DNA from: Deltaproteobacteria bacterium
GTDB taxonomy: Bacteria; Desulfobacterota; Binatia; UTPRO1
Direction of reading: 5' to 3'
Assembly: GCA_020852955.1 (NCBI GenBank)
Contig: JADYZW010000054.1
Span: 11,139-75,138 of the forward strand
DNA: 64,000 nucleotides
Shown: positions 56,451 to 61,794 of the stretch, piece by piece
Layout of the letters: each line of letters opens with the position of its first letter
How positions within the stretch are numbered: the first letter of the stretch is position 1
Notes under the pieces: generated by a model
What the model was told of the DNA's origin: nothing
The model's input: only the letters and a program-made list of their open reading frames with translations
Databases searched by the model: none
Position numbers and translations under genes: made by a program

Positions 56451-57056
56451 ATGCTGCTGCGATACGCGATCCTGGGCCTCTTGGACGGTCAAGAGCTCCA
56501 CGGCTACCGCCTCAAGAGCGTCTTCGAGGACCGGATCGGCCCCGCCTGGTCGTTGAACTTCGGACAGATCTACCAGACGTTGAAGGATCTGCGTCGCCGC
56601 GGCCTCGTGGAAGGACGCTTCGATCAGGGCGACGGCCACATCGGGCGCTGGGTCTACACGGTCACGGCGAAGGGACGCCGCTCGCTCGATACGTGGCTCC
56701 GGCGCTCCCCGAAGCAACCGCAGCCGATCCGCGACGAGATCTTCATCCGCTTGCTCGTCCTCGACCGAAAGGATCGTGACGCGTCGCTGAATCAGGTGGC
56801 CCGGCAAGAGCACGTCTATCGCGAGCACTTGACCCACCTGACCGTCCATCGCCGTAGCCTCGAGCCGGTGAACACGGAAGAGCGTCTGCTGAACTCGCTC
56901 GCGGCCGACGCGGCCCTGTTCCACGCCGAAGCCCACCTGAAATGGCTCGAGCACTGCCGCGCGACGCTGCTCGCCTGGCAGCCGACTGAGGACCCGCCGC
57001 CGCCGAAGTCCTCGCTTCCGACGAAGCCGGCGCGCCCGTCGAAAGCGTCGCGATGA
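56451..57056 (+). CDS. PadR family transcriptional regulator (long, two-domain type)
   Basis: GAGGAGGA RBS. MLLRYAILGLLDGQELHGYRLKSVFE..WSLNFGQIYQTLKDLRRRGLV...YTVTAKGRRSL. Confidence 0.85.
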   Translation: MLLRYAILGLLDGQELHGYRLKSVFEDRIGPAWSLNFGQIYQTLKDLRRRGLVEGRFDQGDGHIGRWVYTVTAKGRRSLDTWLRRSPKQPQPIRDEIFIRLLVLDRKDRDASLNQVARQEHVYREHLTHLTVHRRSLEPVNTEERLLNSLAADAALFHAEAHLKWLEHCRATLLAWQPTEDPPPPKSSLPTKPARPSKASR

Positions 57057-58522
57057 CGGGAGTCGACGACTTCGTCGGCGCGATCGAGGCGAGCATGCGG
57101 GCCGCGATCGAGAGTTCGCCGACCGCCGCGCCGGCAGCCCGCCTCCTCGACGCCGGCGGGAAGCGATTGCGCGCGCGCCTGGTCTGGTGGGCGGCCGCCG
57201 CCTGCCGGGAGCCGCTGCCCGCCGGCGCGGGCGAGCCGCTGATCCGGGCGGGTTCCGCCATCGAGCTCGCGCACCTGGCATCCCTGATCCATGACGATCT
57301 CGTGGACGGCGCCGAGACCCGGCGCGGAGTCGCGACCCTCCATCGCACCCACGGAGCTCGCACGGCGACCGACGCCGGGGCGGCGATCGCCCACCTTGCG
57401 AACGAGCTCGCGGCCGCCCTCGGAACCCGCGCCCGCCGGGCGATGCGTCGAGCGCTCCTCGCGACGTGCCGGGGACAGATCCGTGAGCTCTCCCTGCCGT
57501 TCGTCGCCGTCTCTCCGCGCACCCGCCTCGCCGTCATGCAGGAAAAGACCGGGGCGTTCTTCGAACTCGCCGCGGATCTCGGCGCGATCCTCGCGGGGGG
57601 GAACCCACGGTCGCGCGCGGCCGTGCGGCGCTTCGCCCGACGATTCGGGGTCGCGTTCCAGGTCGCCGACGACGTCCTCGATCTCGCCGGCGCCCGTGTC
57701 GACCTCGGACGCACCAACGGCGCCGATCTCCGTGAGGGCGTCCTCACGCTGCCGGTCCTGCTGGCGAACGATCCGGACCGACGACTCGCGCCGCTGCTCG
57801 AACGCATCCGGTGCACCCGCGACGCAGACGCCGTCGCCGACTGCGCCACGCGCGTGATCCGGGGTGGCGGAGTCGCCGCCGCGAGCGCGGTCGCGGAGTG
57901 GTGGCTCGCGCGCGCCGTCGAAGCGCTCGCGGGGCTCGCGGGGCGGAACGCGTGCGCCCATCTGGTCGAGCTGGCGCGCACGAGCGTCCAGCGCGGCCTT
58001 CGCGTCTCCACACCGACGTTCGCGCGCGATTCCCGCTCCTCTCGAGAACCGCCGCCTGCCCTGTCGTTCGCGAACCGCCACCCCCGGCAGGATCCGGACT
58101 TGGCCGCCTGGACGCCGCCCCGACTGGCCCACCTCCTGGACTGGCTTCATCCGGGCCTCTCCGCGATGGTCGCGGCGCGCGCGGCGGAGCGCACGGTCGA
58201 CGAACACCGGAGCGTGCTCCGTGAGCGTCTGTGCCGCGGACGACGATGGTCGCCAGACGCGATCCTCGCGGCGGAAGCCATCGCGCTCGCGCACGCCCTC
58301 GCCGACGACGGCAGCCTGGCGCGCGATCCCGTCCTGACGCTCGCACTCGTCGACGCCCTTCATTGCGCAGCGATCGGATTCCTGGCGGTCGCCCCCACGT
58401 CGCGGGAGCACGTCCGGATGGCGGCACGGGCTCGGAGGCTCGTCGACGACCGTCGCCCGTACGACCGTCGACCGGAGCTCCGCCGTCCCTACGAGCAGGC
58501 GGCGATCCACCTCACGGCGTGA
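57053..58522 (+). CDS. trans-Polyprenyl diphosphate synthase-like protein with a C-terminal extension of about 150 aa and unknown function
   Basis: The ATG overlaps the PadR stop (ATGA). GKRLRA, first Asp-rich motif LIHDDLVDGAETRRG, KTGAFFELA, second Asp-rich motif FQVADDVLD. No motif recognised in residues from about 330 to 489. Confidence 0.75.
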   Translation: MTGVDDFVGAIEASMRAAIESSPTAAPAARLLDAGGKRLRARLVWWAAAACREPLPAGAGEPLIRAGSAIELAHLASLIHDDLVDGAETRRGVATLHRTHGARTATDAGAAIAHLANELAAALGTRARRAMRRALLATCRGQIRELSLPFVAVSPRTRLAVMQEKTGAFFELAADLGAILAGGNPRSRAAVRRFARRFGVAFQVADDVLDLAGARVDLGRTNGADLREGVLTLPVLLANDPDRRLAPLLERIRCTRDADAVADCATRVIRGGGVAAASAVAEWWLARAVEALAGLAGRNACAHLVELARTSVQRGLRVSTPTFARDSRSSREPPPALSFANRHPRQDPDLAAWTPPRLAHLLDWLHPGLSAMVAARAAERTVDEHRSVLRERLCRGRRWSPDAILAAEAIALAHALADDGSLARDPVLTLALVDALHCAAIGFLAVAPTSREHVRMAARARRLVDDRRPYDRRPELRRPYEQAAIHLTA

Positions 58523-61074: not shown

Positions 61075-61077
61075 GGC

Positions 61078-61794
61078 ATGCACGAGATCCTGATTCGGCT
61101 CGATGGCGTGGAGAAGGTGTTCGAGGCGGGGGCGGGAACCGTGCGTGCGGTCGACCATCTCGATCTGGGGATTCTTCGGGGTGAGTTTCTCACGCTGACG
61201 GGGCCGAGCGGGTCGGGGAAGAGCACGGTCCTGAACCTCCTGGCCGGGCTCGACACGCCGACCGCTGGCGAGATCACGATCGACGGCCGGCGGCTCTCGG
61301 CGATGTCCGACGACGAGCTCACCATCTTCCGCCGCCGGAAGCTCGGCATCATCTTCCAGTTCTTCAACCTGCTGCCGACGCTGACGGCGGCCGAGAACGT
61401 CGCGCTGCCCCTCCGCGCCGACCGCCGGCCGCGCGCGGAGATCGCGGCGCGGGTGGCCGGAGCGCTGGACGCCGTCGGGATGGGACATCGTGCCCGCCAT
61501 CGGCCCGGCGAGATGTCGGGCGGCGAGATGCAGCGGGTCGCGATCGCGCGGGCGCTCGTGATCGACCCCGTCGTGCTGCTCGCCGACGAGCCGACCGGCA
61601 ACCTCGACTCCAAGATGGGGCAGGACATCCTCGAGCTCGTGAAGGGCATGAGCGAACGGACGGGGGTGACGGTGGTGCTCGTGACCCACGATCTCCGGGC
61701 GGCGGCGTACGGCGACCGCATGATCACGCTCCGCGACGGCCGCATCATCGACGAGGTGACCGGACCACATCATCAGGTCGCCCACCACGCCTGA
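61078..61794 (+). CDS. ABC transporter ATP-binding protein (MacB/LolD-type)
   Basis: 3-nt gap after the permease gene. GPSGSGKST, IFQFFNLLP, MSGGEMQRVAIARAL, LLADEPTGNLD. Confidence 0.93.
   Translation: MHEILIRLDGVEKVFEAGAGTVRAVDHLDLGILRGEFLTLTGPSGSGKSTVLNLLAGLDTPTAGEITIDGRRLSAMSDDELTIFRRRKLGIIFQFFNLLPTLTAAENVALPLRADRRPRAEIAARVAGALDAVGMGHRARHRPGEMSGGEMQRVAIARALVIDPVVLLADEPTGNLDSKMGQDILELVKGMSERTGVTVVLVTHDLRAAAYGDRMITLRDGRIIDEVTGPHHQVAHHA

Follow-up and report, generated by a model that had tools for sequence, protein, structure and literature searches.

A conserved gene cassette of Binatota-type bacteria joins a PadR regulator and a polyprenyl diphosphate synthase to a YbbAP-like Type VII ABC transporter

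We analyzed a 64-kb stretch (the window) of contig JADYZW010000054.1, from Deltaproteobacteria bacterium assembly GCA_020852955.1, and found that positions 56451-61794 carry a conserved cassette of four co-directional open reading frames (ORFs). These encode a PadR-family regulator (201 aa), a polyprenyl diphosphate synthase (489 aa), a double-FtsX permease (851 aa) and an ATP-binding cassette (ABC) ATPase (238 aa). The individual parts are ordinary; what is out of the ordinary is their conserved combination, a C-terminal domain private to the synthase, and a mosaic permease. We tentatively favour, at somewhat less than even confidence, the reading that this is a Binatota-type, PadR-autoregulated envelope-lipid operon in which the polyprenyl diphosphate made by the synthase, or a derivative of it, is the lipid worked on by a Type VII ABC machine. 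We favour it because the enzyme is hard-wired between regulator and permease across deep divergence and because its C-terminal domain is private to this context. The PadR and synthase ORFs share an ATGA overlap (57053-57056), the synthase and permease ORFs a GTGA overlap (58519-58522), and the permease and ATPase ORFs are joined as TGA-ggc-ATG with a 3-nt gap (61075-61077; start codon through 61080), all as an earlier reading of the same DNA (the original prediction) had described. That reading had also argued from the junctions for stoichiometric coupling of the four genes, and here we differ, since translational coupling implies co-expression and not equal stoichiometry of the products. The YbbAP complex contains two ATPases for one permease (PMC12646458), and by analogy the same ratio would be expected here.

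We compared the cassette with related contigs, which are labelled L001-L095. The PadR-synthase-permease-ATPase order and the 4-nt overlaps recurred in about 11 lineages (the window, L095, L001/L002/L015, L003, L004/L014, L006, L007, L008, L010, L013 and L016), with the synthase down to ~41-48% identity, and the promoter was likewise conserved in a nine-locus alignment, which upholds the claim that the four genes are one unit. The contig of L007 ends after the synthase, and L001, L002 and L015 represent Polyangiaceae bacterium UTPRO1, the type genome of an order in the phylum Binatota (PMC8262859). Amino acid identity to the window protein was 75-92% for PadR, the most conserved gene of the cassette, 73-93% for the ATPase, 51-70% for the permease and 41-63% for the synthase. 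The flanks differed, with CBS genes upstream in L006 and L007, his and cox genes in L010 and PAS kinases in L008, indicating that the linkage exceeds background synteny. PadR, the ATPase, permease residues 1-340 and the two domains of the synthase had mutually correlated pairwise distances (Spearman 0.81-0.93), which argues that these parts have been inherited together. A scan of GTDB genomes for a further synthase found four loci of the family among the matches listed, the remainder being from unrelated phyla. Judged from these sequences, the cassette is restricted to Binatota-type metagenome-assembled genomes (MAGs) of uncultured soil and sediment bacteria. One related locus, L011:5668-9556, has the same promoter and a PadR-ATPase-permease order with the synthase absent; its permease is 51% identical to that of the window and, like P0156, is basal in the family tree.

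We aligned the sequences preceding PadR in nine loci, the synthase-less L011 included, and the alignment revealed a sigma-70-type promoter. In the -35 element TTGAC was invariant and the final A was present in eight of the nine loci, while in the -10 element (family consensus GAGAAT) A2, A5 and T6 were invariant. A generic promoter and terminator scan had returned nothing useful, and the promoter emerged solely from the cross-locus alignment; the scan overlooked it because the -10 element matches at only 3 of 6 positions. The conserved -35 box falls within a longer ORF that opens at 56355, and the start codon of PadR is the ATG at 56451, which is preceded by the strong ribosome-binding site GAGGAGGAA (consensus AGGAGC, with the G and A invariant). 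About 20 nt upstream of the -35 element lies an AT-rich box, ATATATC-N4-CTATCTAG, which is a candidate PadR operator or upstream regulatory site. The 5'-untranslated region (5'-UTR) holds a second conserved box, GGCGCC-N3-GGCC, in which GGCC was invariant and GGCGCC mostly kept (seven of nine loci); one of the two boxes may be the PadR operator. Together, the conserved upstream elements support a single, probably autoregulated transcript for the four genes. The regulator has the architecture of PadR subfamily 1, with matches to PF03551 (56.1 bits, residues 7-80) and PF10400 (37.7 bits, residues 93-173), and its nearest solved structures were B. subtilis PadR (5x11) and AphA (1yg2).

Pfam and NCBIfam profile scores were read against curated cutoffs, and residues 26-250 of the synthase matched polyprenyl_synt (PF00348) with 158.8 bits against a cutoff of 27. 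The motifs by which it had originally been recognised (GKRLRA, DDLVD..RRG, KTGAFF and DDVLD) were all found; they occupy residues 35-41 (as GGKRLRA), 81-85 (DDLVD), 90-92 (RRG), 165-170 (KTGAFF) and 206-210 (DDVLD). The elements fixed among 20 family members at 39-77% identity were GGKRLR, the first aspartate-rich motif (FARM), RRG, KT and Q-x-x-SARM, where SARM is the second aspartate-rich motif, and the invariant residues were K37, R40, H74, D81, D82, D85, R90, R91, K165, T166, Q203, D206, D207 and D210. An AlphaFold (AF2) model of the full-length protein had a mean predicted local distance difference test score (pLDDT) of 88 and a predicted template-modelling score (pTM) of 0.89. Foldseek aligned it to 5h9d, 9imr, 3aqb_B, 3oyr and 9jr6 with TM(target) of 0.82-0.89 and rmsd of 2.0-2.6 A. 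The structural matches of the catalytic domain, which included the heptaprenyl diphosphate (PP) synthase HepPPS (5h9d), Rv0562 (C45), HexB, HepT and solanesyl-PP synthase (SPS), have the all-alpha isoprenoid synthase fold, and the nearest solved proteins were M. tuberculosis Rv0562 (C45), S. aureus heptaprenyl-PP synthase, solanesyl-PP synthases, HepT and HexB. In short-chain enzymes, bulky residues before the first aspartate-rich motif stop elongation. The residues at this place in the window protein (A-S-L-I-H-DD) are the same as those of solanesyl-PP synthase and include no bulky ones, with a small Ala at -5 and Ser at -4 as in SPS, Rv0562 and HepPPS. From this rule and from its neighbours, the predicted product is ~C35-C45, and the synthase is best described as a divergent enzyme of the medium/long-chain (HepT/SPS/Rv0562-like) class that is, by its motifs, catalytically intact.

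The synthase reached none of the NCBIfam equivalog cutoffs, scoring 160.6 against 450 for the encapsulin cargo model, 141.2 against 456.6 for HepT and 84.9 against 412 for IspB, and the scores with the SPS, hexaprenyl large-subunit and Rv0562-type models, given here by size and not by model, were also below cutoff (121.8/500, 112.5/600 and 108.2/383). Scores so far under the cutoffs fit a specialised paralogue better than a canonical quinone-tail enzyme. It shares with HepST, HexAB, SPS, Rv0562 and IspB the fold, the FARM and SARM, the residues that bind isopentenyl diphosphate (IPP) and the small residues at -4 and -5 before the FARM. It differs from them in its ~30% identity, its scores, its ~170-aa extra domain, its operon context and an Arg, R220 (57710-57712), at the place that Lys takes in the G-K motif following the SARM; this Arg is invariant across the family, while all aligned solved relatives have Lys. 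The family 2 encapsulin cargo polyprenyl transferase (NF041169), although the top NCBIfam model, was rejected on its score and because a shell gene was absent from the window and the related loci; that transferase shares with the synthase a disordered extension.

A housekeeping enzyme for quinone side chains, placed in the operon by chance and with no link to the pump, would belong to this same long-chain class, which normally makes quinone tails; Binatota respire with quinones (PMC8262859), and the 64-kb window encodes no second polyprenyl synthase. We nevertheless consider this explanation very unlikely, as the coupled adjacency was kept across deep divergence and altered flanks, and the enzyme scored below every equivalog cutoff while evolving faster than its neighbours (41-63% identity against 73-93%). 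The probably autoregulated PadR promoter, the unique extra domain and the related lineage that has the cassette minus the synthase speak against it as well. The combination of a sole housekeeping enzyme with a non-conserved adjacency does not apply here, because the adjacency is conserved.

The synthase continues beyond its catalytic domain, and the original prediction had noted an extension of about 150 residues with no assignable motif. We likewise found no known domain in it, but its length is ~173 aa and it comprises a disordered linker, a folded helical domain and a disordered tail (Table 1). The folded domain (the C-domain) was modelled with equal confidence in the full-length protein and in isolation (pLDDT ~90), and its conserved motifs are WFHPGLS, AxDAIALAHAL, DPVRTLALVDALHCAAIG and EH. 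A frameshift or assembly artefact, which the original prediction had allowed for, was ruled out: the frame signal in GC content at third codon positions (GC3) is unbroken across the entire synthase ORF, about 36 homologues of 471-541 aa in a public protein collection span the extension, and dN/dS of the C-domain against the nearest relative was 0.33, indicating purifying selection. The same collection holds an identical protein labelled "MAG: Deltaproteobacteria bacterium". No Pfam family, HEPPP_synt_1 included, matched the C-domain at E<=10, its profile had no match in the PDB at E<=10, and Foldseek against the PDB returned nothing significant (best E=0.63, TM <0.4). An internal duplication of the synthase was rejected, since hhalign could match no more than 9 columns between the C-domain and the N-domain (E=0.16). 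In a profile search of 1.84 billion representative proteins the C-domain occurred in 15 clusters, all of them synthase fusions or N-terminally truncated fragments. By these searches the C-domain is a real domain private to this synthase subfamily.

Another reading is that the C-domain plays, in fused form, the part of the non-catalytic small subunits HexA and HepS, so that it would determine the length of the product and take no part in docking to a transporter. The large subunits HexB (3aqb_B) and HepT (9kp1_B) are among the neighbours of the catalytic domain, the weak Foldseek matches of the isolated domain were mostly isoprenoid synthases, and the pTM of the full-length model suggests that the domain packs rigidly, in a fixed manner, on the enzyme. 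On the other hand, neither HexA (3aqb_A) nor HepS (9kp1_A) was among the Foldseek matches, and these chains and PF07307 had no similarity to the C-domain in sequence or fold. The domain also lacks a significant fold match, a Pfam family and any likeness to its own N-domain, and it occurs only in the transporter-linked subfamily, so that we regard a small-subunit role as unlikely. Its distances tracked those of PadR (Spearman 0.89) and the ATPase (0.88-0.89), while co-variation with the variable module of the permease described below was not seen (0.43-0.46).

The permease had been predicted to be built from two FtsX/MacB-type modules. Both were confirmed, with two FtsX domains (108.3 bits) and two MacB_PCD domains (88.5 bits), but hydropathy gave ten transmembrane (TM) helices in a 4 + 2 + 4 arrangement and not just two 4-TM modules. 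TM1-TM5 are predicted at residues 20-38, 258-276, 303-321, 357-381 and 406-424 and TM6-TM10 at 434-452, 488-506, 727-745, 768-793 and 816-834; TM1 and TM7 are each followed by a large domain, and TM5-TM6 form a linker. By sequence the permease weakly matched MacB, LolC, LolF and YtrF, while YbbP was not among its PDB sequence matches at E<=1e-3. The ATPase matched MJ0796, LolD, the MacB nucleotide-binding domain, YbbA, BceA and FtsE in the PDB, with E-values of 1e-61 to 1e-44. A 4-TM FtsX module with a MacB periplasmic domain between TM1 and TM2, together with a LolD/MacB/FtsE-type ATPase, is the Type VII arrangement. The pair does not resemble a MacAB-TolC-type tripartite pump, as no gene for a membrane fusion protein (HlyD/MacA) or an outer-membrane factor was found in the window or the ~11 related loci. 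On this sequence evidence the permease and ATPase are a YbbAP-like, 10-TM, pseudo-heterodimeric Type VII (MacB/FtsX) ABC machine without an adaptor or outer-membrane partner gene. We assume from family membership (PMC12646458) that it would work by mechanotransmission, without a transmembrane path for its substrate.

The nearest described system is YbbAP-TesA of E. coli (PMC12646458). It has the same fused permease with 10 TM helices, MacB-type periplasmic domains at TM1-2 and TM7-8 and a TM5-6 linker, the same separate LolD/YbbA-type ATPase, the same absence of MacA/TolC partners and a genetically linked lipid-metabolising enzyme. The partner here, however, is a cytoplasmic biosynthetic prenyl synthase and not a periplasmic SGNH hydrolase; no SGNH/TesA-like gene was found at any locus. 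The cassette also differs in lacking a YbbP sequence match (E<=1e-3) and in its probable PadR autoregulation and hypervariable second periplasmic module, so that it has the fused topology of the YbbAP type without YbbP homology or a TesA-like partner. The BceAB transporters of Firmicutes, and bcrABC with the undecaprenyl-PP phosphatase BcrC, likewise combine a 10-TM FtsX-family permease that has a variable extracellular domain with an ATPase. BceAB targets outer-leaflet complexes of polyprenyl-pyrophosphate lipids (PMC7038271, PMC9169098), and an interplay with C35-PP levels has been reported (PMC7038271). BceB, in contrast, has a single extracellular domain (TM7-8) and not two MacB_PCD domains, its regulator is the BceRS two-component system and not PadR, and its lipid is the cis-type C55-PP made by UppS, an enzyme of another fold. 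No two-component-system gene was linked to the transporter here. LolCDE/LolDF gave the best NCBIfam models for both permease halves and the ATPase, and solved LolC, LolF and LolD were among the top PDB matches. LolCDE also extracts lipid-anchored cargo from the outer leaflet and its halves do different jobs. The scores were far below the Lol cutoffs, however (223.7 bits against 307.75 for the ATPase with the LolD model, 95.7 against 362.45 for the permease with the lolCE model), and the halves are fused here in one 851-aa chain with two extra TM helices; being PadR-regulated and lineage-restricted, the cassette is not the essential Lol system. By our comparison BceAB-type operons encode no synthase, and no paper combining PadR, FtsX and polyprenyl was found in the literature searched, in agreement with the original view that the synthase-transporter pairing is undescribed.

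The second half of the permease is a mosaic. GC content fell from ~0.72 to 0.56-0.61 over ~59600-60700, in a window of 71% GC, and GC3 fell from 0.91 to 0.61-0.67. At the nucleotide level PadR, the ATPase, the flanks and the initial 900 nt of the permease were 91-98% identical to those of L095, the closest genome, but identity dropped to 47-65%, with sharp edges, within 59551-60900. Within the low-identity tract dS was saturated and dN was 0.42, while dS elsewhere was 0.2-0.33, indicating that recombination introduced the tract as an old, divergent allele. Across eight lineages residues 341-800 were ~50-55% identical between nearly every pair, even between genomes otherwise ~95% identical, and this module was uncorrelated with the other cassette genes. 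Residues 1-340, in contrast, were 96% identical to the nearest relative with dN/dS of 0.07 and 63-87% identical across the family, and the first periplasmic module was 96-99% identical between close relatives. The halves of the pseudo-heterodimer thus differ, the first being conserved and the second probably an exchangeable, specificity-determining head. A tandem second permease was present in L006 and L093 and an extra ATPase in L010. These copies lie beside the cassette at L006:8763-12091 (where permease 2 is 67% identical to its neighbour), L093:1-4533 and L010:10450-11166, and are possible donors of the mosaic module.

A module of this kind resembles the ligand-recognition domains of proteins facing a changing environment, and the cassette could be a PadR-induced Type VII detoxification or defence pump. 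Such a pump would clear the periplasm or outer leaflet of a lipophilic toxin or peptide antibiotic that is variable and comes from outside, in the manner of BceAB, MacB or YbbAP, and the synthase would not make the cargo but would replenish or remodel the membrane pools of polyprenyl or quinone which the toxin attacks or drains. The subfamily-1 PadR proteins characterised to date repress detoxification genes until a ligand releases them, and the nearest structure is that of B. subtilis PadR. Consistent with a pump, L011 keeps PadR, ATPase and permease behind the same promoter without a synthase, the second module recombines, has a low GC content and is hypervariable whereas the rest is vertically inherited, and permease or ATPase copies have been tandemly duplicated in three lineages. 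There is also a precedent in B. subtilis, where long-chain prenyl-PP levels interplay with FtsX-type resistance transporters (PMC7038271 and its reference 14). Accumulation of C35-PP, however, sensitises the B. subtilis cell and does not protect it (PMC7038271). Nor does a pump account for the private domain, or for a synthase placed, translationally coupled, between PadR and the permease in ~11 lineages. Searches of resistance families gave no match past generic ABC/FtsX similarity; a known anti-phage defence system was likewise rejected, PADLOC returning generic FtsX/ABC similarity only. The detoxification pump is the main rival to the reading that we favour. It accounts better for the hypervariable module and for the sibling without a synthase, and worse for the private domain, and we judge it somewhat unlikely.

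A distant clade, L012 and L094, has a permease ~33% identical to that of the window and lacks the synthase. In L012 a 657-codon ORF (5031-7004, + strand) joins the N-terminus of PadR (aa 1-58) to segments that resemble geranylgeranyl reductase (GGR) weakly and the synthase very weakly. The truncated FAD/GGR-like segment matched GGR_cat at E=1e-4, below the cutoff, and the synthase-like tail had an hhalign probability of 5.8%. L012 lies in assembly ERZ25039533, as does L010, and a complete PadR is encoded divergently upstream of the fused ORF, which may be a relic or a fusion hinting at an older isoprenoid link. The fusion, which sits at the position of the synthase, also bears on the idea that the synthase-like protein is mainly a sensor or regulatory subunit that would bind isoprenoid diphosphates and, by way of its C-domain, modulate PadR or the transporter. 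The ATGA coupling to PadR at every locus and the tracking of PadR by the C-domain would fit such a role, and Type VII transporters in complex with signalling proteins have a precedent in BceAB-BceS (PMC12646458, PMC9169098). The similarities in L012 are weak, however, and a pure sensor is disfavoured because all IPP/allylic-binding and catalytic residues are invariant; we hold it to be the least probable of the explanations considered.

In the envelope-lipid operon that we favour, a lipophilic signal would relieve repression by PadR, and the synthase would make a ~C35-C45 polyprenyl diphosphate at the inner face of the cytoplasmic membrane. Embedded in the membrane, the product itself or something derived from it would be what the ATP-driven mechanotransmission machine pulls out or displays on the periplasmic side. 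Handling of the lipid would fall to the conserved first periplasmic module and contact with a variable acceptor or ligand to the hypervariable second, while the C-domain would tether or couple the enzyme to the conserved cytoplasmic parts (the ATPase, PadR or permease module 1). In a stronger form, which we think doubtful, the C-domain couples a long-chain synthase to a YbbP-like Type VII machine so that lipid synthesis and extraction or presentation are one device, and the recombining module 2 is an interchangeable head that recognises either an acceptor or an antibiotic or toxin captured by the lipid as a decoy. Several points weigh against an envelope-lipid operon. A machine that serves a single conserved endogenous lipid would not be expected to have a hypervariable second periplasmic module exchanged by recombination, and the variability of this module is a better fit to recognition of a variable outside ligand or partner. 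L011 lacks the synthase, so the transporter can exist without it, and no gene of the cassette evolves faster than the synthase. Type VII transporters have no cytoplasm-to-periplasm channel, and a separate flipping step would therefore be needed. The chain length is predicted from residue rules and neighbours, and a cargo consisting of the synthase product or its derivative is a plausible proposal. Of the isoprenoid module first proposed, then, the unit, the catalytic motifs and a real private domain stand, while its cargo and the docking of the extension are left as proposals.

Table 1. Features of the cassette, its promoter region and the adjoining gene (window positions).
Feature	Position	Strand	Basis or remark
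AT-rich box ATATATC-N4-CTATCTAG, imperfect inverted repeat (TAnAT-N7-ATnTA); candidate site	56326-56344	+	TAT and TA.CTA invariant in 9 loci
Sigma-70-type promoter: -35 TTGACA (56365-56370), 18-nt spacer, -10 CAAGAT (56389-56394)	56365-56394	+	9-locus alignment
5'-UTR element GGCGCC-N3-GGCC (box 56424-56436), then ribosome-binding site GAGGAGGAA	56424-56445	+	9-locus alignment
PadR-family regulator, subfamily 1 (winged helix-turn-helix + Vir_act_alpha_C dimerisation domain), 201 aa	56451-57056	+	Pfam
trans-prenyl diphosphate synthase catalytic domain (aa 1-316), medium/long-chain type	57053-58000	+	PF00348
Disordered linker (aa 317-345)	58001-58087	+	pLDDT 56-66; poorly conserved, 48% aa identity to nearest relative
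Family-specific helical C-terminal domain (aa 346-465, ~120 aa)	58088-58447	+	pLDDT ~90; seven or eight helices
Disordered Pro/Arg-rich tail (aa 466-489) + stop codon, overlaps permease start	58448-58522	+	pLDDT <50 for 468-489
Permease conserved module (aa 1-340): TM1, periplasmic domain 1, TM2-TM3	58519-59538	+	MacB_PCD/FtsX, TM prediction
Permease variable module (aa 341-800): TM4-TM9 incl. periplasmic domain 2	59539-60918	+	Recombination mosaic, low GC
Permease C-terminal TM10 + stop codon	60919-61074	+	84% aa identity to L095
ABC ATPase, LolD/MJ0796/FtsE/YbbA type, 238 aa	61078-61794	+	ABC_tran 119.9 bits
PNPOx-like (weakly F420-PPOX-like) gene, possible fifth operon member	61842-62315	+	PF01243 47 bits; 47 nt past ATPase

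The PNPOx-like gene that follows the cassette scored 38.8 bits with TIGR03618, under its cutoff. It adjoined the ATPase in 7 of ~10 lineages, the distant L016 among them, and was absent in L006, L010 and L011. A gene resembling membrane di-iron desaturases/hydroxylases (62542-63549) comes next after it in the closer relatives. Upstream, at 52374-54900 on the minus strand, the window encodes a secreted protein resembling purple acid phosphatases/metallophosphoesterases with a long Thr/Pro-rich repeat linker (TPTPT..TRTATPTPTRT..); the protein at the same position matched Lysyl_oxidase in L004 and had no Pfam match in L003. Positions 1-50000 hold ordinary metabolism and signalling genes: EutB, an ABC-F ATPase, an MMPL transporter, three hybrid histidine kinases, KAS, the GOGAT large subunit, 2-oxoglutarate dehydrogenase E1/E2, GlgC, a sigma-54 activator, ADH and an AurF-like oxygenase. 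Isoprenoid, quinone and carotenoid genes were absent from this part, and no UbiA/MenA, cyclase or carotenoid gene was found in the 64-kb window.

Type VII ABC transporters are being recognised as extractors of lipids and lipid-bound molecules from the inner membrane, as in LolCDE, BceAB, HrtBA and, since 2025, YbbAP-TesA. If our reading is true, a conserved operon that links such an extractor with an isoprenoid-making enzyme, by way of a domain private to it, would extend this theme from lipid hydrolysis to lipid synthesis. If its stronger form is true, no ABC extractor with a dedicated lipid synthase would have been described before, and an isoprenoid-based role in the envelope or in defence would be new and come from an uncultured phylum. 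Docking of the C-domain or an isoprenoid cargo, if true, would raise the importance of the cassette considerably; if the synthase makes the usual quinone tails, what is left is a gene arrangement out of the ordinary. Sharp bounds and recombination make a natural experiment of the second periplasmic module, one that marks the probable specificity site. The cassette would, if the reading is true, give a first functional handle on the envelope biology of the Binatota, a widespread uncultured phylum.

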